Positions 1 through 64,000 are shown, numbered from the stretch's first letter. The stretch: DNA of 64,000 nt from Spirochaetota bacterium (GCA_013426755.1 AP019861.1:1254270-1318269); one strand, 5' to 3'. A program made the numbers and translations. The notes: a model not told the origin generated them from the sequence alone.

Positions 1-177
1 CCTCAGTTAAGATTAAATTAAGTAAATAACTAAATAAATGCAGGTGATACTATGACAGTATTATAATATTATAACATTGTTACCCCGTTTTAACAAATAG
101 TGATTTATATTGATTTATAAAAGAGGGGAGAATAATAATCGGTTAAACTTTAAGGGTAAAGGATTGACTGCTGGGGA

Positions 178-3100
178 TTAATTGCAGGCAGCGGTTGGAT
201 TGCGTTGGCGGTTTGGACAGACAACTGTACGTAATGAGGGGTATTGTCCTGATTGGAAGTTCCAAATCGTATCAAGCCAATTGACGTAGACTTCATTAGC
301 GCCGCTGGGAACAGGTGCGGCGACTTGCAGTTGAGGCGTTGTTCTAGCAGTCCCTGCGGCGCTAGAATCTTTAGTAGAAGTGATGCTATCCCAGTAAGAA
401 TGAATCACACTAGTCGATAAATTTTCTCTATTATCATTACTTCCGATCAAACCTCCGATGTTATTGATGACGTTTCCTGTTACGGTGCCTATAGCATAAG
501 AATTGATGATTTCTCCAAAAGTGGTCATTCCAACCAATCCACCTGTAGCATACATACCATCAACATTTCCTGCTGCGTAAGAGTTGCTGATATGGCCGTA
601 GAAGTTTCTTCCGACTAATCCGCCTACGAAGAATATAGGACTTTCTGGTGGGGTAGTTGTTTTTTGAATATCACCTGTCGCATAGGCAATATCAATAGTT
701 CCCTCGTTAAATCCGACCAATCCGCCTACTCTAAGATCACCCTCAACAGTTCCGTTTGCATAGGATTTACTAATGGTTCTATGTCGGGTATTCCATCCGA
801 CGAGTCCTCCTAAGTAATTAGAGCCTACGACATTACCTGTTGCGTAAGATAAAGAGACAGAACCACCTCTGCCTACTAATCCACCTAAGAAATTTGTACC
901 TGAAATATGTCCCTTAGCGTAAGAACGGCTAATACTTCCAGACAAATCAACTCCAGCTTCTCCTTCTCCGACTAACCCACCTAAGTAATTGCGTCCTGTA
1001 ACAGACCCTGTGGCATGAGAGTCTTCAATTGTTCCCACATTTAGACCCACGAGACCACCTAAGACGTGAGTTCCTGTAATAGATCCCGTAGCATAAGAGG
1101 AGGATTCAATTATTCCTTCATTCTCTCCGACAAGACCGCCTAGCCGATCAGACCCTGTGACGGACCCTGTTGCGTAAGAGGTTTTGATGATTCCTTCGTT
1201 CTGTCCGACTAGTCCGCCTGAGGGTGTTTCTCCCCCTGATGTCCCTCCTGAGACATTTCCTGTCGCATAAGAGTTCTCAATAATAAAGTTAGTGCTCTCT
1301 CTAATATTATGACTTGCACCGAGTAATCCTCCTACAAAAGAATTACCAGTAACGTTTAATGTGACATAAGAATCTCTAATACTGTTAGAGAGAATAGCCG
1401 TATGATTTATGATACTTCCGATAAGTCCGCCAATGTATACACCTCCGCTAACGAGTCCTGTCCCTACTAGATGATTATTAGAAAGGTTAATGACCGAGCT
1501 AGCAAAGATTGCAGCTGGTCCTCCGACAGAACCGATGAAGCCACCGACATGATCGCGTCCGCTAACGGTAGCATTGGTTATCTGTGTATTGGAGATAATG
1601 GTATGACCGGTTAAAGATCCGATGAGTGCACCGACGCGATTTTGTCCTGTGATATTGACATTGCTTAAAACACAATTTTTAATAGTAGCATTCTCGACAA
1701 CACCAAAGAAACCTAGGTTATCAGTGTCAATTTTATCAATATTAATATTTGAAAGGGTATGATTACTGCAGTCTAAGGCACCTGAGAATGCATTCTCCGT
1801 GCGAGTGCTGATGTAAGGGAATTCTGTGAGAATTCCGCCTGCTGTGAGGTCTAGATCGCGTGTTATTCTATAGTCTGCTGTTTTGTAATTACTTTGATTG
1901 TTATTGATAAAAAAAGAAATTGATATTAATTTAAGTTCTTTATCTATCAGATAAGGATTATTTATGGTTCCCTCGCCGTCGATGACACATAAGGGGTAGC
2001 GAATATTGACTACGAAATTATCGGTAAGAACATCGTCGTTGTCACTTATCGTTAAGATTCTTGTAATGATAATACTAGGGGTACCGCTTTCATCAGTAAA
2101 AATGCCATCATTGTAATTAAATGCCCTAGTAATTGGAGAGGACGACCAGGAGCCTACTCGATTAGCGTTTAATACTTCGATAGTCACTGGGTCTAGGAAA
2201 GCGCAGTTCTCGGTTAAAGAAAGCGTTTCACCAGAGCTGATCGTCACAGGACTACCCACAATATTAGCGCTAGTTATTCTCAGTTCTACTAATTCCTCAA
2301 CAAATAAAACTTTAATAATATTAGTCGTTGTCTGTCCGTTAGGTGTCGTGATGATGATAGGATCCAGTGATATTTCAAGAGCATTAGTGCCTTCGGGATT
2401 ATTTAAAGGAAAGGTGATACTGGAACTTGGCGGTGTAGTCGCCGTTTCAATGGTATAGTTTTTCAAAGTGGGGTCTTGGATAAAAACACTTCCTGTGCCT
2501 GCTGCGCCTTTAATGTTTGTGAAGCCTGAGATGAGCACTTCGCCTTCAGATATAATGATATTACTTGGCTGCGTTTTACCAGAAACAATGATGCCAGCAA
2601 ACTCGGCTGTAATGTGTGCCTTCTCTAATGGGGAATTGTATTGAAAAAAATCAAGGACAATATTGTAAGTTTCGCTATTAGTGGGATTATTTTCTTCACT
2701 GATTTTTAATTTGGTATGAATGACGGTTGTGGCAGTGGTTCTTTCGCCATCTGGATCGGTTATGGATATTGTAGAGGGCTCTGCTTTAAAGCCTCTCGGG
2801 ACTTCTACCTCGATAGAACCGCTCCCATCGACGCTATTAGTCTGTCTAAAAATAAGATTAGGATAATCAAAACTCACACTAATCGGCAGTCCATCGAATT
2901 GCCCTGAAACATATTTTTTTACGTTCTGTCCTGAGAACCAATCTGCAACTTTCGGAGTGTCAACACGCACCTTTAGTGTATAAGATACAGCAGGTGAATC
3001 ATCAAACGCGACCATAACCGTATGGGTAAAATCATACGCTAAGACAAAGTCTGTGGTTTGGATTGTGATATTCGTAGGGGTGCTACGGATCCCTAGTTGC

Positions 3101-3532: not shown

Positions 3533-6500
3533 TCAATTACAAGCAGCAGCAGGGTTTGCCTGGCGGTTAGAACAGACCACATTTCGTAGACGCGGGTAAG
3601 CAGCCGCTTGGAATTCCCAGATCATAGCGTCATCCCAGTTTCCATAAATAGCTTCGCCATTAATAATTGTCCCTTTAACAGACTGCAGCTCGGAGCCTGT
3701 AAGTCCTCTTATGTTAGCAGTAATGAGTTCTGTCTGCTCACTAGAAGCTTCTCTATCAGACCCGACTGCTTTAGCAGTAGCAACTGCCCCTTTTACAGTA
3801 AAAGTGGTTTCTGTATTGTAGTAAGAGTCTGTTATACCTTGACCGTCAGGACTGACTAAATTTCCTGGCGCGTGCATGAAAGCATTATACCCTATGAACA
3901 AACCGCCTGCTACTGTCGCTATAACAGTGCTGCGTGTGTAGGAATTGACAACAGTACTGCTAGAAAAATTAAATCCAACTAGACCGCCTACGAGTTGTTC
4001 GCCTGTAACATTACCTGTTGCGTAGGAGTCAGTAATAGACGAGGATTCCCTGTTCCATCCGACCAGGCCGCCAATTGATTGAAACCCAGAGGCATCTCCT
4101 GTTGCGTAAGACTCACTAATGCTAGCACCATCGTAATTGACGCCAACGAGTCCGCCTACATTCCCACTATTAGCATTTGTTCCCGCTGTTGCTGATATGG
4201 CCATGAGTCCTGTTACAGTCCCTGTTGCATAAGATTTTGCGATAGTACTGCCATCATTATATCCGACTAAGCCGCCGACAAGAGAATTTCCTTCTACATG
4301 ACCCGTTGCATAGGAATTGGTAACAGTAGAATTATGAATATTTCGTCCAACTAAGCCGCCTGCGTTAGCATTTGCTGAATTAGAAATAAACCTAGTCACA
4401 TTTCCTGTGGCGTAGGAATTGATAATAGTAGAGTTATTGGTATTTTGACCGACTAGACCACCAATAGTGTGAAACCCGGTTACAGTCCCTCCTGCATGGG
4501 AATCTCGAATAGTCACATGTCCATAATTATTTCCAACCAGGCCACCTCCATTGTACTCAGTTGAGGTGACAGTGGTCATAGCAGAAGAGTTTGTAACCAT
4601 TACGTTAGAAAAAGTTTCTCCGATCAAACCACCTACATCTTCAAAACCAAGAACAGTTCCCGCTGCGCGAGAATTAGTCACTGTTCCGCCATGAACTCTT
4701 CCAACCAGTGTCCCTACATTAGTAAGGCCTAGGATATCGACGTTCGTTAAAATACAATCTTTAATGGTAGCCTCTCTGACGGAACCTAAGAGTCCTACGC
4801 TATTGATAGTTCTATGGATATAGAGATTTGAGATTGTGTTGGCTGCGCAGTCAAATGTCCCTGTGAAAGGGCTTTCTTCTAATCCGATGATAGGGAAGCC
4901 TTCTCTAATAGCGCTCCCGTCCCAGGGCAAACCTACTGAGCCGAGGTCAATGTCCGTAGTAATCCGATAATGCCTACTTCCATAAACAGTATTACTTGTA
5001 TTGACGAGATAGGAGACGAGTTCTAGTTCAGGGGCATTATCTATGCGGTAAGGATCAGATTCAGTACCAGTACCTGAGCCAGCAGGGAAGCTTTCACATG
5101 GCGGGAATTGCAAATTGATCGTGAAGCTAGCTGTGATCTGCCCGGTGGCAGTTTCTACGGTGACTAGCTGCGGCAAAACAAAATTCACTTCACCACCACT
5201 AGGTGCATGTCCCTCTCTGTGATAATAGCGTGGGAGCGACTGAATGCTTCCCGCTGAAACAACACTTCCTGTGCTAGCCATGACAGGAGTTATCGTTGGC
5301 GTAGCGAGGAGGGTACATGGCTCGGAGATTTCAATTGAACCTCCATTGCCAATTGTTACAGGGCTACCTGCAATGTTGGCGCCAGTGACCATGAGTTCAA
5401 CTCCTGTTGGATTTATTAACTCAGCAAGGTCTACAATAATGACGTCATAATTTTTAGTATTGGTGCTCTCACCAGTACTAGGGAATGGGTCTTCAGAGAT
5501 TGTGATAGTACCTGCTTTAACATTATTGAGTGCTCGTGTTCCCAAATCGTCTGGGTCTGTTAACATATCATCACCACTTAGCGAGAAACCGGTAGGAAGT
5601 GTGCCGCTACCTCTTGTGAGAACAACCTCTCCGTTAGGAACATTGGTAAGGGTCCCCGTAATTCTAATATATCTTCCATCAAATCCTAGTGTAGCCGCCA
5701 CAGCGTTATAGGTCACTGATTGAAAATAACTGTTAAACCTAGCCAATGTGAACCAGTCTGCAATAGGCGCTCCTGCTACGTGTGTTTTAAGGGTATAGGC
5801 TTCGGCACTTCCTCCGTCAAAAGCGACCATTACCGTATTCGTAAAATTTTCAGGCGAGATAAGCGCACTTGCTGTGAGGGGAATACTTGTGGGTGTGGTT
5901 GTGATGCCTTGTGATTGGTCGATGGCGATTGTCCACGTGGGCGGTGTTCCTGTTGAGATGTTCGTCAATCCTGTGATGAGCAGTGTTTTTAGTGTCTGGT
6001 CTGAGCTATCGGCACTTACTTTGAAATTTGGATTGCTGGTTTTAAGAACGCTATTACTGGCGTCAATGTGGGAGACGAGTCTAAATAAGATATGTTGCAG
6101 CAATACAATATCAGCAATCGTATACGTTTGACTGTTGTCAGGATTGGCTGTTTCACGAATGGTGATTGTATTTGCTGTGAGCGAAGCGCTTGTGATGGTG
6201 GCTGTATCAAGACCTGCGCCGTCTGGATCGGGAAGAGTGATGGTCTCTTGAGTGGCTGAGAACCCCGTAGGTAGCGACTGAATAGCAATTGATCCCGCTC
6301 CGTTTATTAGATTAGTGAGTCCTGTGAATGTGAGGGTCCCTCCTGTGAGCGTTACCGTAGCTGATGCACTACCTAAGGTAGCGGAAATATAGGTACTTAC
6401 GCTACTTGTGGTGATCCAATCACTTACGAGCGCCCCTGTTACTTGTGTTTTGAGGGTATAGGCTTCGGCACTTCCTCCGTCAAAAGCGACCATTACCGTA

Positions 6501-8224
6501 TTCGTGAAATTTTCAGGCGAGATGAGCGCACTTGCTGTGAGGGGAATACTTGTGGGTGTGGTTGTGATGCCTTGTGATTGGTCGATGGCGATTGTCCACG
6601 TGGGCGGTGTTCCTGTTGAGATGTTCGTCAGTCCTGAGATGAGCAGTGTTTTTAGTGTCTGGTCTGAGCTATCGGCACTTACTTTGAAATTTGGATTGCT
6701 GGTTTTAAGAACGCTATTACTAGTGTCAATGTGGGAAACAAGTCTAAATAGGATATGCTGCAGCAATACAATATCAGCAATGGTATACGTTTGACTGTTA
6801 TCAGGATTGGCTGTTTCACGAATGGTGATTGTATTTGCTGTGAGCGAAGCGCTTGTGATGGTGGCTGTATCAAGACCTACGCCGTCTGGATCGGGAAGAG
6901 TGATAGTCTCTTGAGTGGCTGAGAACCCCGTAGGTAACGACTGAATAGCAATTGAGCCCGATCCGTTCATTAGATTAGTGAGTCCTGTGAATGTGAGGGT
7001 CCCTCCTGTGAGCGTTATTGTAGCAGTGGTGCTACCGAATGTAGCGGAAACATAGGTACTTACGCTAGTTGTGGTGATCCAATCACTTACGGGCGCCCCT
7101 GTTACTTGTGTTTTGAGGGTATAGGCTTCGGCACTTCCTCCGTCAAAAGCGACCATTACCGTATTCGTGAAATTTTCAGGCGAGATGAGCGCACTTGCTG
7201 TGAGGGGAATACTTGTGGGTGTGGTTGTGATGCCTTGTGATTGGTCGATGGCGATTGTCCACGTGGGCGGTGTTCCTGTTGAGATGTTCGTCAGTCCTGA
7301 GATGAGCAGTGTTTTTTGCGTCTGGTCTGAGCTGTCAATATTGACATTGAAGTTTGGATTGCTGGTTTTAAGAACGCTATTACTGGTATCGATATGGGAA
7401 ATCAGGCGTATAAGGTTATCTGGTAGAAGTTCAATGTCAGCAATCGTATACGTTTGACTGTTATCAGGATTGGCTGTTTCACGAATGGTGATTGTATTTG
7501 CTGTGAGCGAAGCGCTTGTGATAGTGGCTGCGGTAGTACTTGCTCCGTCTGGATCGGGAAGAGTGATGGTCTCTTGAGTGGCTGAGAACCCCGTAGGTAG
7601 CGACTGGATAGCAATTGATCCCGCTGTGTCCCTTAGATTGGTAAGTCCTGTGAAGGTAAGGGTATTTTCTGTGAGCGTTACCGTAGCTGACGTACTACCT
7701 AAGGTAGCAGAAATATAGGTACTTACGCTAGTTGCGGTGATCCAATCACTTACACTTGCGGCGTCGACGTAGGCGTTTAGGGTATAAATAACTGGACTGG
7801 CTGCTTCGGAGGTGACGGAGAGGGTTTCTGTGATCATTTCAGCAGAAATAACCGTTGTCGGTGTGAATGTAAGCTGTGTGGGTGTGGTTGTGAAACCTTG
7901 GTTTTGTGGAATGTCGATAGTCCACGTGGGTGCGGTTCCTGTGGCGGCATTTTTCAATCCAGAGACACGCAATGTAGTGAGCGTAGCATCGGTGGCATCG
8001 GCTTCAATGGTGAGTTCTGAATGAGTATTTTGAATGCTAGAAACCAGTTGTTCGAGCAAGTTAGTTGTTTCAGGTGGTGTTGTAGAGGGCTCTGTCCCGG
8101 TACAATTTGCAATGAAACCCAATACAAACATTCCCAGCACTGTTCGTGTGAGAACTGTTCGTGATTTTTTAATCCATTGTGGGCACAATTGACTTTTTGT
8201 TTTATAAGAATCATTTGAAAACAT
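3533..8224 (-). CDS. Giant GLUG-motif surface lipoprotein with four tandem ~221-aa modules (family member 2)
   Basis: 1563-aa ORF with a hydrophobic leader and a lipobox-like FIANC. Four consecutive ~221-aa modules follow (..ISGLTNISTGTPPTWTIAIDQSQG..AYTLKTQV..SDWIT..LTFTGLTNL..ITLPDPDG..ETANPDNSQTYTIADI..), three of them near-identical. Then come the lead-in (DPYRIDN...DIDL...FTGTFDCAANTISNLYI) and GLUG units. The tail is VVCSNRQANPAAACN. Confidence 0.8.
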   Translation of the reverse strand: MFSNDSYKTKSQLCPQWIKKSRTVLTRTVLGMFVLGFIANCTGTEPSTTPPETTNLLEQLVSSIQNTHSELTIEADATDATLTTLRVSGLKNAATGTAPTWTIDIPQNQGFTTTPTQLTFTPTTVISAEMITETLSVTSEAASPVIYTLNAYVDAASVSDWITATSVSTYISATLGSTSATVTLTENTLTFTGLTNLRDTAGSIAIQSLPTGFSATQETITLPDPDGASTTAATITSASLTANTITIRETANPDNSQTYTIADIELLPDNLIRLISHIDTSNSVLKTSNPNFNVNIDSSDQTQKTLLISGLTNISTGTPPTWTIAIDQSQGITTTPTSIPLTASALISPENFTNTVMVAFDGGSAEAYTLKTQVTGAPVSDWITTTSVSTYVSATFGSTTATITLTGGTLTFTGLTNLMNGSGSIAIQSLPTGFSATQETITLPDPDGVGLDTATITSASLTANTITIRETANPDNSQTYTIADIVLLQHILFRLVSHIDTSNSVLKTSNPNFKVSADSSDQTLKTLLISGLTNISTGTPPTWTIAIDQSQGITTTPTSIPLTASALISPENFTNTVMVAFDGGSAEAYTLKTQVTGALVSDWITTSSVSTYISATLGSASATVTLTGGTLTFTGLTNLINGAGSIAIQSLPTGFSATQETITLPDPDGAGLDTATITSASLTANTITIRETANPDNSQTYTIADIVLLQHILFRLVSHIDASNSVLKTSNPNFKVSADSSDQTLKTLLITGLTNISTGTPPTWTIAIDQSQGITTTPTSIPLTASALISPENFTNTVMVAFDGGSAEAYTLKTHVAGAPIADWFTLARFNSYFQSVTYNAVAATLGFDGRYIRITGTLTNVPNGEVVLTRGSGTLPTGFSLSGDDMLTDPDDLGTRALNNVKAGTITISEDPFPSTGESTNTKNYDVIIVDLAELINPTGVELMVTGANIAGSPVTIGNGGSIEISEPCTLLATPTITPVMASTGSVVSAGSIQSLPRYYHREGHAPSGGEVNFVLPQLVTVETATGQITASFTINLQFPPCESFPAGSGTGTESDPYRIDNAPELELVSYLVNTSNTVYGSRHYRITTDIDLGSVGLPWDGSAIREGFPIIGLEESPFTGTFDCAANTISNLYIHRTINSVGLLGSVREATIKDCILTNVDILGLTNVGTLVGRVHGGTVTNSRAAGTVLGFEDVGGLIGETFSNVMVTNSSAMTTVTSTEYNGGGLVGNNYGHVTIRDSHAGGTVTGFHTIGGLVGQNTNNSTIINSYATGNVTRFISNSANANAGGLVGRNIHNSTVTNSYATGHVEGNSLVGGLVGYNDGSTIAKSYATGTVTGLMAISATAGTNANSGNVGGLVGVNYDGASISESYATGDASGFQSIGGLVGWNRESSSITDSYATGNVTGEQLVGGLVGFNFSSSTVVNSYTRSTVIATVAGGLFIGYNAFMHAPGNLVSPDGQGITDSYYNTETTFTVKGAVATAKAVGSDREASSEQTELITANIRGLTGSELQSVKGTIINGEAIYGNWDDAMIWEFQAAAYPRLRNVVCSNRQANPAAACN
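5770..8050. repeat. Coding tandem repeat, period 663 bp (221 aa), about 3.5 copies
   Basis: The same ~150-nt string (gcgaccattaccgtattcgt.aaattttcaggcgagat.agcgcacttgctgtgagggg...) recurs at 5823, 6486 and 7149, exactly 663 bp apart. A diverged copy is phased at 7812. The antisense ORFs at 5874, 6504 and 7167 are near-identical shadows of it. Confidence 0.9.
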
Positions 8225-15041: not shown

Positions 15042-18000
15042 TCAATATTTAGTATTAGGTTTATGGTGTAGCATAATTTTAAGTAGATTGGCTTTATAGG
15101 AGAGTTGTTGTGAGAGCAGGGGTGCGTTGGTGGCTAGGGCGTGAAGTTTTTTCTTATCTGAGAGGAGCTGGCGTAATTCTTGGCTGAGCGAATGAATCTC
15201 GGTTGATTGGCAACGGAGAGACCCGTTATGCTGTTCGAAATGGGGTGTGATATCTGAGAAGGCTTTCATGTGAGGTCCGTAAATTGTTGGGGTGCCATGG
15301 AGGGCTGCTTCTAAGAAGTTATGTCCGCCGCTACCACGGACAAATGTATCGCCAATGAGTACAAGGTCTGAACTTTGATAAATGGCTTTAAGAACGCCTA
15401 AGTGTGCGATAATAAGAATTTGTTGCTGCCTAGGTGTGTGCTCTGAATGAGCTATATACTCTGAATGATCCGTATGTTCTGAATGATCTGTATGTTTTGA
15501 ATGATCTGTATGTTTTGAATGATCTGTATGTTTTGAATGATCTATATGTTCTGAATGAGCTGTATGTTCTGAATGAGCTGTATGTTCTGAATGAGCTGTA
15601 TGTTCTGAATGAGCTGTATGTTCTGAATGAGCCGTATGTTCTGAATGATCTGTATGTTTTGAATGAGCTGTATGTTCTGAATGAGCCGTATGTTCTGAAT
15701 GATCTGTATGTTTTGAATGAGCTGTATGTTTTGAATGATCTGTATGTTTTGAATGATCTGTATGTTCTAAATGATTTGTATGTTCTAAATGATCTATATG
15801 TTCTGAATGATCTGTATGTTTTGAATAATCTGTATGTTTTGAATAATCTGTATGTTTTGAATAAGGTATATTTTGCAGCTTCTGTGTGTGTGTTGGCTTA
15901 GAGGGAGGAATACCATTGGTAAGTTCTGTCAAAAAAGCATTCCAATGGGTTTCCATAATTGCAGAATTGCTGTTCTCTGAAATAGTTGTTGAGTTATTTT
16001 CTGAGGCAATTATTGAATTCTTCTCTGAAATGGTTGTTGAATTATTCTTTGAGATAGTTGTTGAATTCTTCTCTGAGATGGTTGCTGAATTCTTCTCTGA
16101 GATGGTTGCTGAATTATTTTCTGAGGCAATTGTTGAATTGTTTTCTGAGAATTTTTTTAATGTGTGTTTATCTAGATAAGAGACTGCAAACTTCTTTCCA
16201 AGTTGCTTGGCTAATTTCAATCCGCGTTCTGGATGACGGGGTACTATGATTAGAAATACTGGGGGCGTTGTTGCGTCTGATTCTATTGTGGCTGAATTTT
16301 CTGTTTCTATTGCAGATGAAATTTTTGTTTTTACTGCGGATGGAGAATTTGACTGCATTGCGGCTGAATTTTCTGTTTCTACTGCAGATGAATTTTTTGT
16401 TTTTACTGCGGATGGAGAATTTGACTGCATTGCGGCTGGAGTTTCTGTTTCTACTGCAGATGAAATTTTTGTTTTTACTGCGGATAGAGAGTCTGACTGC
16501 ATTGCGGCTGGAGTTTCTGTTTCCACTGCAGATGAATTTTTTGTTTTCATTGCAGATGGAGAATTTGACTGCATTGCGGCTGGAATTTCTTTTTTCACTG
16601 CAGATGAATTTTCTGTTTTCACTGCAGATGGAGAATTTGACTGCATTGCGGCTGGAGTTTCTGTTTCCATTGCAGATGAAATTTTTGTTTTCATTGCAGA
16701 TGGAGAATTTGACTGCATTGCGGCTGGAGTTTCTGTTTCCACTGCAGATGAAATTTCTGTTTTTACTGCAGGTGGAATGGTTGAATTTACTGTGGCTGTG
16801 GGCTGGATAAGCATTTCACTTAGGGCTGTGACAATAAGTTGTTCTTCACCTTCATGGGAAGATGCCAATGTGACAATCTGCGGCGTGGTCGTTGTCATGT
16901 GAGCATAATCAATCAAATCACTGAATTTACTTTTACAAAGTCGCTTGATAGGGTAGGGAATGTCTGTAAAAGTTTCATTATTATTTTTTTTGAATTGTTG
17001 TAAGAAACCTTGATTGTATTTTATATTTCCAATTGCTGCAATGATTGGCGTACCAGTAGCAGCCGAATTATTTGAATCAGCAGACGAAGTAGACGACAAT
17101 TTTCGATCAGCAGCCAAATTACTCAAATCAGCAGACGGAGTACTCGAATCAGCAGCCGAATTACTCGAATCAGCAGCCGAAGTAGACGGCAATTTTCGAT
17201 CGGCAGCCGAATTATTCAAATCAGCAGACGAAGTAGACGGCAATTTTCGATCAGCAGACGGAGTACTCGAATCAGTAGCCGAATTACTCGAATCAGCAGA
17301 CGGAGTAGACGGCAATTTGCGATCAGCAGATGAAGTAGGAGTAGAAATAGGAGACAAATTGGGAACAGGAGTGGGAGACAATTTTCGATCAGCAGCCGAA
17401 TTATTCAAATCAGCAGACGGAGTACTCGAATTAGCAGCCGAAGTAGACGGCAATTTGCGATCAGCAGCCAAATTACTCGAATCAGCAGACGGAGTAGACG
17501 GCAATTTTCGATCAGCAGCCAAGTTACTCGAATCAGCAGACGGAGTAGACGGCAATTTTCGATCAGCAGACGGAGTACTCGAATTAGCAGCCGAAGTAGA
17601 CGGCAACTTGGAATCAGCAGATGAAGTAGGAGTAGAAGTAGGAGACAAATTGGGAGTAGGGGAGTATAGTTTTTGTATGATTTTGTGTGTGGTTTCTGAA
17701 CACGTTAAGATGTGGCTTAACCGATGGGTCCATTTGAAGACAGCAGGGAATTTTTGATACCATTTTCCTGCTTTACCTTTGAGTTCGTAATTGACGAGGA
17801 GGCGGTGGTGTCCATTATTTTTGAGTTTTTCTAACAGGACAGGCCACAGATCATTCTCAATCACCACGAATGGCGCCGCAGGTTTCAATGTCTTCACATA
17901 CTTTCCTAGTATAGGAGCAAAATCCAATGGGACATAACAAAAATTAATATTAATATTGTGTTTTATTTTAAGATGTTTTGTTATGGCGGCTGCGCGTTCT

Positions 18001-19703
18001 GCCCCTGTGGAGGATTGGTAAGTGAGCAGGAATTGTGGGATTTCCTTATCCATTGAGTCACTTCTAAATGGGGTAGGAGAGATAGAAGATAAATTTTCAT
18101 TAGCTATTGAATCACTTCGGAGTTGAGGTGAAGACAAGTTTTTACTACCCATTGAGTCATTTCGGGGTGGGGTAGGAGAAGTAGAAGATAAATTTTCATT
18201 AGTCATTGAATCACTTCGGAATTGAGGTGAATACAAGTTTTCACTACCCATTGAATCATTTCTAAATGGAGTAGGAGAAGTAGAAGATAAATTTTCATTA
18301 GCTATTGAATCACTTCGGGGTGGGTTAGGAGAAGTAGAAGATAAATTTTCATTAGTCATTGAATCACTTCGGAGTTGAGGCGAAGACAAGTTTTCACTAC
18401 CCATTGAATCATTTCTAAATGGAGTAGGAGAAGTAGAAGATAAATTTTCATTAGCTATTGAATCACTTCGGAGTTGAGGTGAAGACAAGTTTTCACTACC
18501 CATTGAGTCATTTCGGGGTGGGGTAGGAGAGGTAGAAGATAAATTTTCATTAGCTATTGAATCACTTCGGAGTTGAGGTGAAGACAAATTTTCATTAGCT
18601 ATTGAATCACTTCGGAGTTGAGGTGAAAACAAGTTTTCACTAACTATTGAATCATTTCTAAATGGAGTAGGAGAGGTAGAAGATAAATTTTTATTAGCTA
18701 TTGAATCACTTCGGAGTTGAGGTGAAGACAAGTTTTCACCACCCATTGAATCATTTCTAAATGGAGTAGGGGTAGGAGAAGTAGGAGAAGCAAAATTGTC
18801 ATTTCCTGCTAGAAAGACACGAATTACTTCCGCTACCAAATTCACTTCTCCCGCAGAAATAGCATGAATCCAAGCATCATAACGACCTTTGAATATTTCC
18901 TCCTTAGGAAATCCTGCTTTTTCAAGGTAGTAATTGGTTTTCCTAGAATATTTCTTCTGCCCAGTACTATTATCACGCATCCTAGCATTATCGTGCATCC
19001 TAGTATTATCGTGTATCCTAGTATTATCATGTATCCTAATATTATCATGCTTCCTAGCATTATGACGCATTCTAGCATTATCACAATTGCCTGCATTGAA
19101 TGTAGAGGTCGCACCCATAGTCGCTGTATTGTTGGTACTGGCATGCTCATTGTGAGTACTGGCACGCTCATTATGAGTATCAATGGTGGTCGTATTGCCG
19201 GTACTGGCATGCTCATTGTGAGTATCAATGGTGGTCGTATTGTTAGCATTGGTGTTTACATTGTGAGTATCAATGGTGGTCGTATTGTTAGCATTGGTGT
19301 TTACATTGTGAGTATCAATGGTGGTCGTATTGTTAGCATTGGTGTTTACATTGTGAGTACCAATGGTGGTCGTATTGTTAGTATTGGTGTTCACATTGTG
19401 AGTATCAATGGTGGTCGTATTGTTCGTGCCAGCGGTACGAATTCCGAGTAGAATGCCGAGACCACGGCGATTTAGAGTACTTTTTAGAGTACTCTTTATA
19501 AGATTGCTTATAGTACTCATAGCATTCACTAGGGCATATTTCAATCTGAGGATCATTCCGTATAGACCAAAATAAAACCAAAGTAAGCCCATCGCACATT
19601 GATAGACCCATTCTATAGGGGAAACTTTTTCTAGCTTCATAGCATTTAACAATTGCTTATAGTACTCATAGTATTCACTAGGGCATTTTTTAACCTGATG
19701 CAT
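15042..19703 (-). CDS. waaA: 3-deoxy-D-manno-octulosonic acid (Kdo) transferase WaaA/KdtA carrying six in-frame tandem-repeat insertions
   Basis: All the conserved WaaA blocks I know from E. coli are present in order: WIHAISAGE (cf. HSVSVGE), VVIENDLWP (cf. METELWP), LASSHEGEE (cf. TSTHEGEE), LIIVPRHPER (cf. LVPRHPER) and GGHNFLEAALHGTPTIYGPH (cf. GGHNPLEAAAHAIPVLMGPH). The blocks are separated by six low-complexity repeat tracts. The ORF-track start at 19703 is probably an over-extension. The Met at 19640 (MKLEKVSPIEW..., followed by a TM helix) is the likelier start. Confidence 0.8.
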   Translation of the reverse strand: MHQVKKCPSEYYEYYKQLLNAMKLEKVSPIEWVYQCAMGLLWFYFGLYGMILRLKYALVNAMSTISNLIKSTLKSTLNRRGLGILLGIRTAGTNNTTTIDTHNVNTNTNNTTTIGTHNVNTNANNTTTIDTHNVNTNANNTTTIDTHNVNTNANNTTTIDTHNEHASTGNTTTIDTHNERASTHNEHASTNNTATMGATSTFNAGNCDNARMRHNARKHDNIRIHDNTRIHDNTRMHDNARMRDNSTGQKKYSRKTNYYLEKAGFPKEEIFKGRYDAWIHAISAGEVNLVAEVIRVFLAGNDNFASPTSPTPTPFRNDSMGGENLSSPQLRSDSIANKNLSSTSPTPFRNDSIVSENLFSPQLRSDSIANENLSSPQLRSDSIANENLSSTSPTPPRNDSMGSENLSSPQLRSDSIANENLSSTSPTPFRNDSMGSENLSSPQLRSDSMTNENLSSTSPNPPRSDSIANENLSSTSPTPFRNDSMGSENLYSPQFRSDSMTNENLSSTSPTPPRNDSMGSKNLSSPQLRSDSIANENLSSISPTPFRSDSMDKEIPQFLLTYQSSTGAERAAAITKHLKIKHNININFCYVPLDFAPILGKYVKTLKPAAPFVVIENDLWPVLLEKLKNNGHHRLLVNYELKGKAGKWYQKFPAVFKWTHRLSHILTCSETTHKIIQKLYSPTPNLSPTSTPTSSADSKLPSTSAANSSTPSADRKLPSTPSADSSNLAADRKLPSTPSADSSNLAADRKLPSTSAANSSTPSADLNNSAADRKLSPTPVPNLSPISTPTSSADRKLPSTPSADSSNSATDSSTPSADRKLPSTSSADLNNSAADRKLPSTSAADSSNSAADSSTPSADLSNLAADRKLSSTSSADSNNSAATGTPIIAAIGNIKYNQGFLQQFKKNNNETFTDIPYPIKRLCKSKFSDLIDYAHMTTTTPQIVTLASSHEGEEQLIVTALSEMLIQPTATVNSTIPPAVKTEISSAVETETPAAMQSNSPSAMKTKISSAMETETPAAMQSNSPSAVKTENSSAVKKEIPAAMQSNSPSAMKTKNSSAVETETPAAMQSDSLSAVKTKISSAVETETPAAMQSNSPSAVKTKNSSAVETENSAAMQSNSPSAVKTKISSAIETENSATIESDATTPPVFLIIVPRHPERGLKLAKQLGKKFAVSYLDKHTLKKFSENNSTIASENNSATISEKNSATISEKNSTTISKNNSTTISEKNSIIASENNSTTISENSNSAIMETHWNAFLTELTNGIPPSKPTHTQKLQNIPYSKHTDYSKHTDYSKHTDHSEHIDHLEHTNHLEHTDHSKHTDHSKHTAHSKHTDHSEHTAHSEHTAHSKHTDHSEHTAHSEHTAHSEHTAHSEHTAHSEHTAHSEHIDHSKHTDHSKHTDHSKHTDHSEHTDHSEYIAHSEHTPRQQQILIIAHLGVLKAIYQSSDLVLIGDTFVRGSGGHNFLEAALHGTPTIYGPHMKAFSDITPHFEQHNGSLRCQSTEIHSLSQELRQLLSDKKKLHALATNAPLLSQQLSYKANLLKIMLHHKPNTKY
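15432..15863. repeat. 18-bp coding repeat x24 (His-rich hexapeptide HS[EK]HT[AD]) inside waaA
   Basis: The unit agctgtatgttctgaatg and variants read as 24 consecutive hexapeptides, running from YSKHTD to HSEHTP. The tract lies between the PRHPER block and the GGHNFLEAA block. Confidence 0.95.
15957..16152. repeat. 24-bp coding repeat x~8 (SENNSTTI) inside waaA
   Basis: The protein tract is SENNSTIASENNSATISEKNSATISEKNSTTISKNNSTTISEKNSIIASENNSTTISE. Confidence 0.9.
16265..16800. repeat. 72-bp coding repeat x~7 (TETPAAMQSNSPSAVKTKISSAVE) inside waaA
   Basis: A 24-aa unit is reiterated between the HEGEE block and the PRHPER block. The antisense ORFs at 16246 and 16268 are shadows of this array. 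Confidence 0.9.
17045..17665. repeat. Irregular in-frame coding repeats (SADRKLPST / SADSSN units) inside waaA
   Basis: The protein tract STPSADRKLPSTPSADSSNLAADRKLPST... is reiterated with variable unit lengths. Confidence 0.85.
18040..18800. repeat. In-frame coding repeats (SPTPFRNDSMGSENLSSPQLRSDSIANENLSST units) inside waaA
   Basis: About 250 aa of reiterated ~16/33-aa units lie immediately after the WIHAISAGE block. Confidence 0.9.
18955..19430. repeat. Two adjacent coding arrays inside waaA: 18-bp (HDN[TA]R[IM]) x~8 and 45-bp (NNTTTIDTHNVNTNA) x~5
   Basis: The protein tracts are HNARKHDNIRIHDNTRIHDNTRMHDNARMRDN and TNNTTTIDTHNVNTNTNNTTTIGTHNVNTNANNTTTIDTHNVNTNA... They lie between the N-terminal TM helix and the first catalytic block. 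Confidence 0.9.
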
Positions 19704-19818
19704 TCACTAGGGCATATTTTAATCTGAGGATCGTTCCGTATAGACCAAAATAAAACCAAAGCAAGCCCATCACACATTGATAGACCCATTCTATAAGGGA
19801 AACTTTTTCTATCTTCAT
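19690..19818 (-). pseudogene. Tandemly duplicated 5' fragment of waaA (42-codon remnant)
   Basis: Hand translation gives MKIEKVSLIEWVYQCVMGLLWFYFGLYGTILRLKYALVNASG*. This is ~90% identical to the waaA N-terminus starting at 19640 (MKLEKVSPIEWVYQCAMGLLWFYFGLYGMILRLKYALVNAMS...). The duplication period is 178 bp. Confidence 0.7.
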
Positions 19819-19920
19819 AGCATTTTAACAATTGTCTTCTTTTGCTTTAACAATTGCCTTCTCTCATTTTATCATGAAAAGAACCATTCGCTTTCCAGCG
19901 TAGCAATGAATAATTTTGGC

Positions 19921-20320
19921 ATTGATTTCAATTGCAGCTTATAGCGTAGTTAACCAATTGATCTCAATTGTAACTCATAGCACAGTTAACCGATTGATCT
20001 CAATTGTAACTTATTTGTAACTCATAGCGTAGTATAACCGATTGATCTCAATTGTAACTCATAGCGTAGTATAACCGATTGATCTCAATTGTAACTCATA
20101 GCGTAGGATAACCAATTGATCTCAATTGTAACTTATAGCATAGTTAACCGATTGAACTCAATTGTAACTCACAGCGTAGTTAACCGATTGATCTCAATTG
20201 CAGCTCATAGCATAGTTAACCAATTGATCTCAATTGTAACTCATAGCGTAGTTAACCAATTGATCTCAATTGTAGCTCATAGAATATCAATGGCAGCATA
20301 TAGAGTAGTGACTCATTGCT
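19921..20320. repeat. Intergenic minisatellite, 36/37-bp unit x~10
   Basis: The unit is attgatctcaattgtaactcatagcgtagttaacc(g/a). Each unit carries the palindromes CAATTG (often twice) and usually GTTAAC. Confidence 0.95.
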
Positions 20321-44041: not shown

Positions 44042-44107
44042 AGAACACGAGTAGAATATTAAAGAATTATACTCTGCTTGAGTTACTCTTCGTAACGGTA
44101 TTAGTTA

Positions 44108-50072: not shown

Positions 50073-50200
50073 TTTCAATACATTTTCATTTAATTACCTG
50101 TGCTCTCGCTTTCAATACATTTTCATTGAACTACTTATGCTTTCAATACATTTTCATTTAATTACTTGTACTCTCGCTTTCAATACATTTTCATTTATAT
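50073..50200. repeat. Intergenic tandem repeat, 31-38-bp unit x4
   Basis: ttcaatacattttcatt occurs at 50073, 50111, 50142 and 50179. Confidence 0.85.
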
Positions 50201-50224
50201 TGCATTTATATCGCCTTCATTCAT

Positions 50225-50297
50225 ACAGTCAAATACAATCAAATAGAATCGAGTACCATCAAATAGAGTCAAATACAATCAAATACAGTCAAAGTAC
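50225..50297. repeat. 10-bp repeat x~7
   Basis: The units run aaatacaatc, aaatagaatc, gagtaccatc, aaatagagtc, aaatacaatc, aaatacagtc. Confidence 0.8.
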
Positions 50298-50310
50298 TAC
50301 TGTACAGTCT

Positions 50311-50404
50311 TCTCAATCATATTAAATCTCAATCATCTTAAATCTCAATCATTCTAAATCTCAATCATCTTAAATCTCAATCAGTCTAAATCTCAATCAT
50401 CTTA
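50311..50404. repeat. 16-bp repeat x~6
   Basis: The units are aaatctcaatcatctt, aaatctcaatcattct and aaatctcaatcagtct. Confidence 0.9.
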
Positions 50405-50434
50405 ATAATATTGTACTATCATCTTAAAAACTTA

Positions 50435-50535
50435 TTCACATATTATAATACATTCACATATTATAGCAGTTTATAATACATTCATATATTATAGCAGTTT
50501 ATAATATATTCACATATTACAGCAGTTTATAAGCC
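50435..50535. repeat. 28-bp repeat x~3.5
   Basis: The unit is attcacatattatagcagtttataatac. The first copy contains ttattcaca (50432-50440), which matches the DnaA-box consensus TTATNCACA. Confidence 0.85.
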
Positions 50536-50950
50536 TTACCACCCATTCTCCGCAGAGTTTTCGCAGAATTCTAAACAATAGTGTACTCTTAACAACTCAT
50601 ATCATAATCAAGTGCCCATAATCAATAGGCTATATATACAACATAAATCGTATAATTCATGAATATTGTAAACCAGTTAATCATAAAATTTGTTATTTTT
50701 ATCGGCACAAATTGTTATTTTTATCGACACAATATCAAAATTATAGGGGTTATGATGATATAATATACACATGCATTGAATATACACATGCATTGAGTAT
50801 ACAGACACATTGAATAGGCACACACATTTGAAATAACCCTAATTGCTATAAATAGCACAAAAATATCAAAAAGTATATAAAATATCAGGAATATATAACA
50901 TATATACAATATCAATTTTTACACACCATTATTAACAATTATTAATATCC

Positions 50951-51220
50951 AATCACATTGAATATCAATCACATTGAATATTAATCGCACTGAATATCAA
51001 TCACATTGAGTATTAATCGCACTGAATATTAATCGCATTGAATATTAATCACATTGAATATTAATCACATTGAATAATAATCGCATTGAATAATAATCGC
51101 ATTGAATAATAATCGCATTCAACATTGACATCACATTCAACATTGATATTACATTCAACATTGATATTAAATAGTAAGTAGTAAATAGTAAGTAATAATA
51201 ATAGTAAGTAATAATAATAT
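50951..51220. repeat. Composite arrays filling the 270 bp upstream of rpsU: 16-bp x~10, 18-bp x3, then agtaagta-type units
   Basis: The 16-bp unit aatcacattgaatatt / aatcgcattgaataat runs 50951-51116. The 18-bp unit attcaacattgatattac runs 51117-51170. The tract agtaagtagtaaatagtaagtaataataat... then runs up to the ATG at 51222. Confidence 0.9.
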
Positions 51221-58275: not shown

Positions 58276-58356
58276 TAGGCTAGCAGAAATAATATTGAGT
58301 TTTTAATTGAAACTTTTATTGAGTTTTTAAAAAATGCTTATAAATGATTGATAGCA

Positions 58357-58465
58357 TTTTCAAGGAATAACTGGATTTTCAAGGAATAACTAGATTCGCA
58401 GGGAATAACTAGATTTGCAGGGAATAACTGGATTTTCAAGGAGTAACTGGATTTGCAGGGAATCA
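58357..58465. repeat. 19-bp tandem repeat x~6 abutting or overlapping the stop codon of the ThiF-family gene
   Basis: The units are ttttcaaggaataactgga, ttcgcagggaataactaga and tttgcagggaataactgga. The last unit contains the stop (tca at 58463-58465). Confidence 0.9.
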
Positions 58466-59434
58466 GTTAATGGCTGGAATTGGCGGAACATTACTGGGAG
58501 CAAGTGTTTTACAGAATGAACAGAACGGACTTCGTTTGAGGATATGAAATCTATTTTTAGCCGCATCTAGGGTGAGTAATTGATTGGTGAGTAAAGACGT
58601 ATTCGTGTGCAGCGTATTGGGGTTATTATCATGAGGGAAGAGAGCAGCTGTGGAAGTAGCATTTTTGAGATTGGAATCTTTGGGGCTGGAATCTTTGAAA
58701 TTGGATTTGGGGGGGCTGGAATGTGTGAAATTGGATTTTGGGGGGCTGGAATCTTTGGAATTGGAATCTGTGGGAATAGTAGAAGGTACACGGCGTAATA
58801 TAAGCAGAGCTTTTAAAACTTCACTTGCCAGAAAAGACCCGATCATTCCACAGAGCGGAGCAAATACACCATGCGCCGCACAACTCCTCCGCTCATCACT
58901 GTCAATAGTATCAAAAAAACAACGTAAACAGGTACTTTTACTAGGGATAATTGTTGTCACTTGTCCTGTCATGCCTAAGGCACTGCCGTGTACAAACCAT
59001 TTCCCCGCACGAAGTACGGCGTCATGGAGCATTATTTTATCACCCAGAGCGTCTAGACAATCAACAACAATATCTACATTCCGAGTAAGATCAGGCACTG
59101 TGGCTGCATTCAGCTTAACTGCAAGTGGAATTGTGATGATTTCTGGATTGAGTTTTCTAACGACTGCGGTTGCTTGCCGTGTTTTTAGCCGATCAATGTC
59201 GTTCATCGTATAAAGAATCTGACGTTGTAGATTTGATAAAGAAACTTTATCAAAATCGGCTAAATAAAGCGTGCCAACACCCGCCGTAGCAAGATAATAC
59301 GTAACAGCCGAACCCAAGCCGCCCAGCCCCGCAACCAACACTCGCCCACTAGCAATCGCAGAAACACCCACTTCTCCTAACTGAGGCAGAACTAAATGTC
59401 TCGCATGCCGTTCTAAAGTTGCTTCATTCATCAC
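58463..59434 (-). CDS. ThiF/MoeB/HesA-family adenylyltransferase (E1-like) with a repeat insertion
   Basis: 323 aa. It has RHARHLVLPQLGEVG, the nucleotide-binding loop VLVAGLGGLGSAV, and LADFDKVSLSNLQRQ. Two CxxC pairs (CLRC and CSFC) resemble the MoeB/ThiF zinc site. A 30-bp x~4 repeat (SSPPKSNF..) is inserted between the two CxxC pairs. No ThiS/MoaD-like partner ORF is seen nearby. Confidence 0.8.
   Translation of the reverse strand: MMNEATLERHARHLVLPQLGEVGVSAIASGRVLVAGLGGLGSAVTYYLATAGVGTLYLADFDKVSLSNLQRQILYTMNDIDRLKTRQATAVVRKLNPEIITIPLAVKLNAATVPDLTRNVDIVVDCLDALGDKIMLHDAVLRAGKWFVHGSALGMTGQVTTIIPSKSTCLRCFFDTIDSDERRSCAAHGVFAPLCGMIGSFLASEVLKALLILRRVPSTIPTDSNSKDSSPPKSNFTHSSPPKSNFKDSSPKDSNLKNATSTAALFPHDNNPNTLHTNTSLLTNQLLTLDAAKNRFHILKRSPFCSFCKTLAPSNVPPIPAIN
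58664..58783. repeat. 30-bp coding repeat x~4 inside the ThiF-family gene
   Basis: gaaattggatttgggggggctggaatgtgt and variants are reiterated, with gaaattgg at 58697 and 58727. The protein tract is KDSSPPKSNFTHSSPPKSNFKDSSPKDSNLKN. Confidence 0.9.
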
Positions 59435-62614: not shown

Positions 62615-63949
62615 TTATGCGGATAGATCATTGATTATCCTTTTTAGGTCTTCGATAACCTTATCGGCGTCTGCTTTGGGGTAGATTCCTGTTATAACTT
62701 TATTAGAAGGAATAAAAGTGTTAGGAGGACCACTGTTTGTACTTAGTATGTTCTCGACTTTATCCATTTTCTTTCTAAAATTACTAATATCATTATATTT
62801 TATATCGGTTAATACATTCTCGATATCTGTTCTTTTTCTTCTAAAATTTGATATATCATCTGGTTTTACACCTCCACTAAATACAATATTATTATTTAAA
62901 TCAGTCGATTGACCTACTCTATTTTCTAATCTGGCAACTGCAAGTTCTAAATTTGTTTGTCCCGATATAGAAGTGGGAACAGTATAAGCTCCGCTAAAAT
63001 TGGTTTTATCAAACTTAGCTCCCTGAAACTGAGCTTTCGATAAATTAGCCCCTTGAAGCTGGGCATTACTTAAATTAGCCCCTTGAAGTTGGGCTCCTGT
63101 TAAATTAGCCCCTTGAAGCTGGGCATGAAATAACTTAGCTCCTTGAAACTGGACGCACGTCAAATCAGTTCCTTGAAACTGGACTTTATATAAATTAGCC
63201 GTTTGAAACTGAGTTCCTTGTAAATTAATCCCTTGAAGCTGGGCTTTCGGCAACTTAGACCCTTGAAGTTTGACTCCTGTTAAATTAGCTTCTTCGAACT
63301 GGGCATTTTCTAAATTAGTATTTTTTAGATTAGCCCTTTCAAGTTGTGCTTTTTCTAAATTAGCCCCTTGAAGCCGGGCATTTTCTAAATTAGCCCCTTG
63401 AAGTTGGGCTCCTTTTAAATTAGCATTATTAAGATTAGCACGCTGAAAATAAACGTTTGACAAGTCTAGCCATTTACTAGAAAAAGGAATTTCCTTTCCA
63501 TTCGGAATTTTCTCTGCATTCTTTTTTTCAATAAGAAGGTCTAAAATAAATTGTATTGTCGCTGGTGAAATATCACAATTCTGAACACGACTTTCTGTTT
63601 GAAGATAATTACAAAAAACTGTACAGATACGTTTTCTTTTATCATTTGATTGTTCTTCTAACGCCAATTCATATAGATTTTGAAAGCCAATTCGAACGAC
63701 TCCCTGTCTTTTACTTTCAATCTGGCTTATAGCATAGTTGTAACGCTGTTCAGTGTTACTCTTACGCTGTTCAGTGTTACTTTTTTCTTGTGCCTCTGCT
63801 ACTCTGTGCTGTTCTAACATAAGCATGAAACTAATTATAGCCGTTATAAATAATACAAATAATGTTGCGGTATTATTTAAATTAAATTCAAATACTAAAA
63901 CTCCAACTAAACCTCCAGCTATGCCCAGAAGGATAGGTACACTAAACAA
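62615..63949 (-). CDS. Membrane-anchored pentapeptide-repeat protein (PRP family member 5, divergent)
   Basis: 444 aa with two TM helices. The N-domain is diverged (EQRYNYAISQIES....VRIGFQNLYELA ... ICTVFCNYLQ ... TIQFILDLLIEKKN). Pentapeptide repeats (ANL..AQLQGANL) follow, then the family C-domain (VFSGGVKPDDISNF...YPKADADKVIEDLKRI). Confidence 0.85.
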   Translation of the reverse strand: MFSVPILLGIAGGLVGVLVFEFNLNNTATLFVLFITAIISFMLMLEQHRVAEAQEKSNTEQRKSNTEQRYNYAISQIESKRQGVVRIGFQNLYELALEEQSNDKRKRICTVFCNYLQTESRVQNCDISPATIQFILDLLIEKKNAEKIPNGKEIPFSSKWLDLSNVYFQRANLNNANLKGAQLQGANLENARLQGANLEKAQLERANLKNTNLENAQFEEANLTGVKLQGSKLPKAQLQGINLQGTQFQTANLYKVQFQGTDLTCVQFQGAKLFHAQLQGANLTGAQLQGANLSNAQLQGANLSKAQFQGAKFDKTNFSGAYTVPTSISGQTNLELAVARLENRVGQSTDLNNNIVFSGGVKPDDISNFRRKRTDIENVLTDIKYNDISNFRKKMDKVENILSTNSGPPNTFIPSNKVITGIYPKADADKVIEDLKRIINDLSA

Positions 63950-64000
63950 AATAATATTATAGACAATGGACGTATTATAACAATTATATAAATGCTCAAT

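Follow-up and report, generated by a model that had tools for sequence, protein, structure and literature searches.

The 64,000 nucleotides considered here (the window, meaning the whole stretch of DNA analysed, with positions counted from its first letter) form part of the chromosome of COTS27, a member of the Spirochaetota. Tandem arrays make up 12,219 of these bases, or 19.1%. They account for about half of the non-coding DNA and have entered the genes of core enzymes, the heaviest load being carried by waaA, the gene for a Kdo (3-deoxy-D-manno-octulosonic acid) transferase. We think it probable that repeats with units of at least 9 bp were born and have expanded in this particular lineage under weak selection, and that within genes they were filtered for reading frame, hydrophilicity and placement in loops. 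It is the density of the arrays and their invasion of housekeeping enzymes that are unusual.

The assignment to COTS27 follows from AccA, which is 100% identical to BBM89123.1, and from 13 more proteins that match BBM89099-BBM89131; the locus tags spanned are COTS27_00792-00824, and for ten proteins of the window the identity is 100%. An origin in the Beggiatoaceae, to which the pentapeptide genes, the AT-richness and the best GlyQS match had pointed, was rejected on these grounds. Wada et al. (2020, PMC7444263) described COTS27 as an uncultured spirochaete that forms a biofilm-like layer beneath the cuticle of crown-of-thorns starfish. Its chromosome is circular, with 2.68 Mb, 39.6% GC and 1650 coding sequences (CDSs) that average 1,627 bp per CDS and include a 53-kb giant gene; transposable elements and prophages were not found by the authors (PMC7444263). 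Platanus was used to assemble paired-end and mate-pair Illumina reads, gaps were then closed by Sanger sequencing, and this closure, PCR and mate pairs of 15 kb served to validate the structure (PMC7444263). Tandem repeats are mentioned only once in that paper, as the cause of 23 assembly gaps, all of which are attributed to repeats in genes (PMC7444263); the feature was thus seen earlier but never analysed, and the supplements and later literature contain nothing about repeats or repair genes. CheckM completeness is 90.66% although the chromosome is closed (PMC7444263). Repeat-inflated or strongly diverged marker proteins might account for this score.

Array density in the window

Tandem Repeats Finder (TRF) was used at a score of at least 50, overlapping rows were merged into arrays, and the gene model was built from open reading frames (ORFs) and Pfam matches. 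The 139 rows obtained in this way merge into 78 arrays, which take up 5,945 of the 12,094 non-coding bases (49%) and 6,274 of the 51,906 coding bases (12%). Nearly all spacers longer than 200 bp contain arrays, divergent promoter regions included; were the arrays removed, non-coding DNA would drop to about 12% of the window. In 20 first-order Markov shuffles of the window the repeat bases had a mean of 11 and a maximum of 65. With the same TRF settings, 61 glyQS loci from other bacterial genomes (GC 28-61%) gave a median of less than 0.5% repeat and a maximum of 7.3%, the latter on a contig of Ca. Marithrix. The SATFIND criterion (PMC6749651), by which an exact decamer must occur four times or more at a spacing of 10-260 nt, was re-implemented in a rough form. 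The approximate count for the 64 kb is 28 satellites (438 per Mb), whereas other loci, 1.79 Mb in all, give 8.4 per Mb; about 23 per Mb is the highest value among the table rows considered here of the prokaryote survey in which the criterion was introduced (PMC6749651).

The density of arrays in the window is far above that of other bacteria, and the original prediction, which was made from the DNA alone and held such saturation to be rare, was right in this respect. It had also counted at least two dozen distinct arrays with unrelated units, where we find 78. The intergenic periods that it listed (including 10, 14, 16, 18, 19, 22, 28, 32, 36/37, 40, 45, 59 and 82 bp) are all present, as are the intragenic ones (18, 24, 30, 39, 45, 72, 90 and 105 bp, and 663 bp x 3). 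Head-to-tail copies of units of at least about 10 bp, beyond chance expectation, are the hallmark of minisatellites and of variable-number tandem-repeat (VNTR) loci, and occur throughout these arrays. The spacers that carry them are as follows.

19704..22453, no strand: divergent spacer between waaA and a DNA methylase gene, 2.75 kb, 31% GC, array-filled
within 19704..22453: 36 bp x 9.7 (19921-20282) and 18 bp x 34.8 (20383-21011)
within 19704..22453: 82 bp x 2.9 (21448-21686) and 59 bp x 4.7 (21968-22266)
26889..26958, no strand: intergenic array, 22 bp x 3.2, upstream of rsmA
34563..36306: spacer arrays of 20/40 bp (34563-34857), 32 bp x 8.6 (35055-35330) and 14 bp x 40.3 (35743-36306)
40037..41893: spacer arrays of 16/32 bp (40037-40273) and 45 bp x 7.2 (40326-40650; 98% identity, the youngest)
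40037..41893, remainder: arrays of 16/32/64 bp (40887-41301) and 18/26/40/84 bp (41431-41893)
50073..51219, no strand: divergent spacer between accA and rpsU, with arrays of 37, 10, 16/32, 28, 22, 17, 18, 16/32 and 16 bp
58356..58463, no strand: array of 19 bp x 5.7 between rluA and thiF

The nearest relative found, a contig of a metagenome-assembled genome in ENA (L132), has an AccA that is 68% identical to that of COTS27. Its syntenic locus (TPR-Rrf2-ThiF-RluA-ppa-rpsU-accA-glyQ-glyS) occupies 8.2 kb and yields zero TRF arrays; the accA-rpsU spacer together with rpsU covers about 600 bp there and is array-free. In three more distant relatives the loci that bear waaA (L133, L135 and L136) have no arrays either, and WaaA has 413-414 residues. 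The proliferation of the arrays therefore post-dates the split of COTS27 from these relatives. A GlyQS scan of the genome and metagenome collections revealed no relative above about 57%, the best match being Ca. Marithrix at 57%.

Two further observations concern the spacers. The 14-bp array at 35743-36306, with the unit TTACCAATTATTAT, forms on its + strand a ladder of weak sigma-70-like pairs (TTACCA-N16-TATTAT) with only 9 of 12 consensus matches, on the strand antisense to the flanking genes. The window has no tRNA or Rfam matches, and an explanation of the arrays in terms of RNA was dropped.

Selection on arrays within genes

The fundamental period is divisible by three in 32 of the 33 coding arrays and in 11 of the 43 non-coding ones (26%, which is indistinguishable from one third; Fisher p=5e-11), so that the comparison of period modulo three, which the original prediction had proposed as a check, gives a strong contrast within the window. 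The rule also holds when the pentapeptide genes are excluded (18 of 18 coding arrays) and when only arrays with at least three copies are taken (Fisher p=1e-5). Such a frame filter is familiar from coding repeats in general and is not special to COTS27. Subirana and Messeguer (2019, PMC6749651) describe arrays of at least four copies with units of 10-260 nt in genes and spacers alike, with periods that are multiples of three dominating in the genes and marking the genic satellites.

Reading frame is only one of the properties by which the surviving arrays differ. The coding arrays encode 44% Ser, Asn and Thr, and the hydropathy of their products is -1.06 as compared with -0.30 in the housekeeping proteins of the window; in the non-coding arrays stops occur in 90 of 102 reading frames, and most of the stop-free frames are hydrophobic. 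The compact, conserved proteins FumC, AccA, Ppa and S21 have not been invaded and, like Rrf2, are of normal length. Selection in genes sieves at least four things, namely frame, absence of stops, hydrophilicity and position. The proposal that it removes only frame-breaking events was thus too narrow, given the hydropathy values, the stops and the placement in WaaA loops described below. Arrays whose period does not divide by three need not, moreover, destroy an ORF: of the three + frames of the 14-bp x 40 array, one is open and two are almost so.

The most heavily loaded gene is waaA, the features of which are listed here.

15042..19703, - strand: waaA (Kdo transferase) ORF, 1553 aa, PF04413 at 5e-19
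15442..15862, - strand: 18 bp x 23.4, 92% identity, encoding (S-K/E-H-T-D/A-H)n in a WaaA loop
15973..16150, - strand: 24/72 bp array encoding (SENNSTTI)n
16276..16776, - strand: 72 bp x 6.8 (91%), a higher-order repeat of three diverged 24-bp subunits (67%)
17058..17620, - strand: irregular S/A/D/P-rich array with periods of 21/42/51/72/93, in which the ORF stays open
18050..18781, - strand: 99/153/252-bp higher-order array, 88% at period 252, in the 258-aa loop insert
18969..19083, - strand: 18 bp x 6.4, encoding (DNxRMH)n
19128..19424, - strand: 45 bp x 5.7 (92%), encoding (NNTTTIDTHNVNTNA)n

WaaA has 1553 residues as against 410-450 in its homologues, a 3.6-fold inflation, and the seven in-frame arrays account for 2,807 of the 4,662 bases of the gene (about 60%). 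The irregular tract keeps the ORF open, as the original prediction had stated. Homologues were found among 5.8 billion proteins with the repeat-deleted core sequence as the query; the best 120 of them have 358-743 residues, mostly 410-450, and are at most 30-34% identical. To our knowledge there is no bacterial example of inflation on such a scale, the search basis for this statement being only those best 120 WaaA homologues, all shorter than 750 residues. The alignment of WaaA with five homologues has 42 invariant columns, among them those of the motifs HAxSxGE, PRHPER and GGHNxLE, and its profile matches the Kdo transferase structures 2XCI (4e-46) and 4BFC (1e-49). On the structure predicted by AlphaFold2 for P0001, the closest homologue (pLDDT 93.3), the five large inserts (182, 258, 202, 179 and 222 aa) all map to loops between elements of secondary structure. 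Because the 4.66-kb ORF is intact, the motifs are conserved and the inserts lie in loops, the activity of the enzyme would appear to survive about 1,100 aa of inserts.

The inserted peptides themselves show little sign of constraint. Mismatches to the array consensus, pooled over nine low-complexity coding arrays, number 58/47/60 at codon positions 1/2/3 (p=0.41 against equal numbers), and 30% of them are synonymous as compared with 23% expected from random stop-free changes. There is no excess at the third codon position and hence the peptides look like tolerated filler; to judge from their codons, the inserts in enzymes drift almost freely and do not look like functional modules. The positive role that had been envisaged for the arrays is accordingly not borne out for the enzyme inserts, the copies of which diverge in a neutral-looking fashion, but is possible for those in surface lipoproteins.

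Two groups of coding repeats are of a different kind.

5748..7736, - strand: domain of a GLUG protein in three copies of 663 bp, a structural repeat
42386..45646, - strand: two pentapeptide-repeat genes, PF00805
52321-57156, + strand: two pentapeptide-repeat genes of 539 and 1043 aa between ppa and rluA, PF00805
62615-63949, - strand: pentapeptide-repeat gene, PF00805

In the 663-bp GLUG repeat the mismatches are distributed 19/14/37 by codon position (p=0.002) and the synonymous fraction is 0.50 as against 0.26 expected, a pattern which indicates a selected protein domain under purifying selection and not filler. The five pentapeptide genes match PF00805 (the A(D/N)LXX quadrilateral beta-helix) at 1e-36 to 4e-99 and their units are interrelated; their periodicity of 15/30/90 bp is the protein fold's own repeat. 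The pentapeptide and 663-bp repeats are therefore structural and form a separate class, contrary to the idea of a single process behind all of the arrays. The two pentapeptide genes between ppa and rluA are missing from the otherwise syntenic locus of L132.

Origin of the arrays

An all-against-all comparison of the units, on both strands and in any rotation, revealed no relatedness except among the pentapeptide genes and between the parts of one array that TRF had split; likewise, no unit recurs at several loci of the window as a dispersed family would, the pentapeptide arrays apart. As the units are mutually unrelated, the arrays arose locally and not from a mobile or targeted element, which supports the sequence-independent duplication process that had been proposed. 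Higher-order periodicities are seen (24->72, 30->90, 16->32->64, 20->40 and 99->252 bp), and such structure implies repeated rounds of duplication in multi-unit registers. Identity between copies spans 98%, in the 45 bp x 7.2 array at 40326-40650, to about 64%. This range suggests a spectrum of ages. Both it and the higher-order repeats are only indirect signs of active expansion and contraction.

The process is also selective as to unit size. Repeats with units of 1-8 bp occur in the window at the Markov expectation, without excess (15 homopolymers of at least 8 against 15.5 expected, and 1 dinucleotide run against 0.6), and the smallest TRF period at a score of 50 is 9. The generating process is specific to minisatellite-sized units, of at least 9 bp. 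Mismatch repair handles small loops, whereas single-strand exonucleases and helicases limit slipped intermediates with long units. Loss of mismatch repair, the first suspect of the original prediction, is therefore a poor candidate for the cause, because the small units that it would affect are not enriched and the units seen have at least 9 bp.

The explanation that we favour would run as follows. In the lineage of COTS27, local sequence would be duplicated de novo in tandem at a high rate, with units of about 9 to 250 bp, and the resulting arrays would expand and re-duplicate through slipped-strand mispairing, unequal exchange between sister chromosomes, or both. Their removal would be weak, plausibly as a result of inefficient selection in a host-restricted symbiont population. 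In spacers any period would survive, so that half of the non-coding DNA comes to consist of arrays; in genes the survivors would be those that keep the frame, bring no stops and encode a hydrophilic, probably disordered peptide in surface loops or at the termini of tolerant proteins. We infer the mechanism of slippage or unequal exchange, the weakness of selection, the genome-wide extent and the ongoing change in copy number. An inflation that reaches beyond the window is suggested by the 1,627 bp per CDS, the 23 repeat gaps in genes and the reduced CheckM score.

A bolder form of this proposal, which we put forward tentatively and consider to have less than an even chance, is that a lesion or innovation in replication or repair, specific to the lineage, makes duplications of 9-250 bp across the whole genome while microsatellites stay stable, and that COTS27 has the most minisatellite-dense bacterial genome described. 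A candidate lesion is the loss of those single-strand exonucleases or helicases that abort long-unit slipped intermediates. If this is so, bacterial core enzymes would be undergoing a low-complexity inflation like that in Plasmodium, and COTS27 would be a natural model of satellite birth in prokaryotes as well as of the tolerance, and perhaps recruitment, of disordered inserts by proteins.

Several points weigh against the explanation that we favour. The material is one 64-kb window of one strain in a short-read assembly, so that ongoing instability is a presumption, and an Illumina-only assembly gives no certain copy number for an array that exceeds the read length. It is possible that the window covers the replication terminus; such regions can be atypical, and the density over the whole genome could therefore be lower. 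The neutral-looking codon pattern comes from only 165 mismatches and could be blurred by gene conversion between copies. As regards the counts, structural repeats of the pentapeptide or GLUG kind, and not young products of slippage, account for roughly a quarter of the coding arrays. The exact 1553-aa product of waaA is absent from the protein collection under five start sites. Lastly, the GenBank numbering implies four CDSs inside 19704-22453, 34565-36420 and 39865-41892, and the non-coding counts would shift slightly if they are real. These four are probably ORFs created by the arrays, and thus annotation artefacts, since the candidate ORFs encode hydrophobic periodic peptides or lack start codons. 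Hidden genes were considered in the arrays at 20383-21011 and 40326-40650 and rejected, because the open frames have no start codons or encode hydrophobic nonsense; the 36-bp array beside 20383-21011 has stops in all frames.

Among the alternatives, it is possible to regard the arrays as adaptive contingency loci, that is, as selected hypervariable switches that tune expression or surface proteins toward the starfish host. Classical contingency loci have units of 1-8 bp and are found in a few dozen surface or restriction-modification genes. VNTR and contingency loci (those of Neisseria, Haemophilus and Campylobacter, and MIRU/VNTR) resemble the arrays of COTS27 in that they too slip in promoters and ORFs, and in that in-frame units change the length of a protein; the units of COTS27 have 9-250 bp, however, are far more numerous and lie within housekeeping enzymes. 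Two in-frame arrays just past the lipoprotein-like N-terminus of a GLUG-family surface protein occupy a typical site for a variable tether, and a contingency role is possible for such surface lipoprotein arrays. The presence of arrays in almost all of the longer spacers and divergent promoter regions, and the ladder of weak -35/-10-like sites in the 14-bp array, could be read in the same way, but the matches in that ladder reach only 9 of 12 consensus positions, no motif is common to the units, and the tracts of 1-8 bp that mark classical phase variation are not enriched in the window. Furthermore, the heaviest load lies in WaaA, a core enzyme of lipopolysaccharide synthesis, and ThiF/MoeB and RsmA are affected too, where surface variation would be meaningless, and the copies diverge in a neutral-like manner. 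As a general account of the arrays this is improbable.

It is to about the same degree unlikely that the window is merely a local peculiarity, a replication terminus or an accessory island in an otherwise ordinary chromosome. Near 20.5 kb, inside the waaA-methylase spacer, GC skew flips in sign (about +0.2 before, about -0.25 after), and it is not clean beyond 40 kb; a gene index of about 798 of 1650 places the window near mid-chromosome, and the flip may mark the replication terminus. Accessory-type genes are present as well (the methylase, an ImmA/DUF4411 pair, and the GLUG and pentapeptide families). Against this, core genes and spacers are invaded across all 64 kb (waaA, thiF and the accA-rpsU spacer), and the repeat gaps in genes and the mean length per CDS point to the genome as a whole.

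That the arrays or their lengths were made by the short-read assembly of a host-plus-microbe hologenome sample is very improbable indeed: the use of Platanus on Illumina paired-end and mate-pair reads, the 23 unresolved gaps in tandem repeats and the presence of arrays of 400-730 bp, longer than the reads, would favour it, but assemblers collapse repeats rather than invent dozens of unrelated arrays, the copies have interspersed variants and a consistent higher-order structure, the authors validated the structure, the window has no runs of N, many arrays are shorter than a read, and the WaaA inserts fit loop boundaries precisely. An artefact is still relevant to the exact copy numbers, and these are not confirmed by an intact ORF, given that the periods in genes divide by three.

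The explanation by lineage-specific birth and expansion of repeats has its closest precedent in Ehrlichia ruminantium, which is also host-associated and has long intergenic regions made of many unrelated tandem repeats (PMC10710844). There the repeats actively expand and contract (PMC10710844, PMC7343930); they likewise obstruct assembly, and they are mostly non-coding (PMC7343930). Intergenic enlargement by unrelated repeats is equally seen in the window (49% of non-coding bases, as against the short, array-free spacers of L132), but in COTS27, unlike Ehrlichia, arrays form 12% of the coding sequence and a core enzyme is inflated 3.6-fold. Whereas copy-number variation has been demonstrated in Ehrlichia, the arrays of COTS27 are known from one assembly; furthermore, E. 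ruminantium belongs to the Alphaproteobacteria and is obligately intracellular, and COTS27 is an extracellular spirochaete. Repeats reportedly make up some 8.5% of the E. ruminantium chromosome, a figure ascribed to Collins et al. (2005 PNAS), as compared with 19% of the COTS27 window, and the plasticity of that genome through tandem repeats is said to have been treated by the same authors and by Frutos et al. (2006 J Bacteriol).

Other systems are less close. In Plasmodium falciparum and Dictyostelium, hydrophilic N/S/T-rich inserts, often tandem and near-neutral, lengthen enzymes at their surface loops. COTS27 differs in being a bacterium at 39% GC and not an AT-extreme eukaryote, and its inserts are still recognisable as DNA minisatellites. 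At the protein level these inserts are nonetheless more like those of Plasmodium housekeeping proteins than like anything that we know of in bacteria. The satellites of Leptospira interrogans, Methanosarcina, Chloroflexus and Burkholderia, in the part of the survey considered here, reach a peak of about 23 per Mb as against the approximate count of 438 per Mb in COTS27; in Leptospira, Chloroflexus and Burkholderia many of them belong to dispersed families, which suggests transposition, whereas each array of COTS27 is unique (PMC6749651). The TAACTGA heptamers of marine Beggiatoaceae and the STRRs (short tandemly repeated repetitive sequences) of cyanobacteria (PMC4679880) are again abundant intergenic tandem repeats, in the former case in an uncultured and unusual bacterium, but they form a single conserved family of heptamers for which a regulatory role has been proposed, while COTS27 has no shared unit and no heptamer arrays.

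If lineage-specific repeat birth is the correct explanation, it bears on more than one question. Bacterial genomes are normally kept compact by deletion bias and efficient selection. A free-standing symbiont genome of 2.7 Mb, with spacers that are half minisatellite and core enzymes laden with neutral filler of hundreds of residues, would be an exception to this compactness, and would mean that the birth of repeats can outrun deletion in a bacterium without transposable elements. It would also point to a regime of mutation in which the instability of minisatellites is uncoupled from that of microsatellites. The arrays allow one to see, in a natural experiment, where a protein can accommodate disordered inserts. 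In practical terms, repeats of this kind are a warning for work on such symbionts, as they distort annotation, completeness estimates (CheckM 90.7%) and short-read assembly; conversely, the arrays could serve to mark COTS27, and hence populations of crown-of-thorns starfish, at high resolution.

Other genes and features of the window

Further inserts and in-frame repeats are found in the following genes.

58664..58774, - strand: in-frame array of 30 bp x 3.7 in ThiF/MoeB, inside an insert of about 47 aa
27012..28160, + strand: rsmA with P/S/T/Q-rich inserts, 382 aa as against 287 aa in L135
45649..48885, - strand: fused glyQS, a 1071-aa CDS (BBM89122) in which a P-rich linker of about 40 aa joins the two parts and GlyQ has a small insert
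24871..25082, - strand: in-frame duplication of 105 bp x 2 in a DUF4411 (PIN-like) gene, from TRF and Pfam
38481..38654, - strand: in-frame array of 39 bp x 4.5 in the GLUG-like lipoprotein gene 36421-39864
39138..39539, - strand: in-frame, N/T-rich higher-order array of 30/90 bp near the N-terminus of the same GLUG-like lipoprotein

ThiF/MoeB has 322 residues compared with 276 in L132, and its array lies in the extra segment. In L132, glyQ and glyS are separate genes 28 bases apart (6229-8206), whereas in COTS27 they are fused. The inserts in rsmA and in the glyQS linker are of low complexity and give no tandem signal even at a TRF score of 30, in agreement with their earlier description as not clearly tandem; a decayed tandem structure was sought in the rsmA and glyQS inserts and none was detectable. 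They may nevertheless be the decayed end of the same series of arrays.

A replication origin with iterons at 19.7-22.4 kb, in the spacer where the GC skew changes sign, was considered and rejected, as there are 8 near-matches to DnaA boxes against 19 expected and the skew flips in the direction of a terminus.

The gene at 36421-39864 (- strand, COTS27_00809) encodes a hypothetical protein of 1140 residues with a lipoprotein-like N-terminus (...LAMITLGC) and two internally duplicated domains; its C-terminus is a GLUG-like G-rich repeat region that Pfam does not report. In total the window has five pentapeptide genes and five GLUG-type genes. Three adjacent paralogues at 9961-14470 (- strand; 488, 479 and 496 aa) have no Pfam domain above the gathering threshold, and all match the same segment of L135 at 27-30% identity. 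ImmA has a diverged N-terminal duplication of about 95 aa. It belongs to an island of low GC (0.30-0.35) at 22454-26789, which consists of an N4/N6 DNA methylase, an unknown protein of 288 aa and the pair formed by DUF4411 and the ImmA/IrrE metallopeptidase, and which looks like a restriction-modification module beside a toxin-antitoxin-like one.

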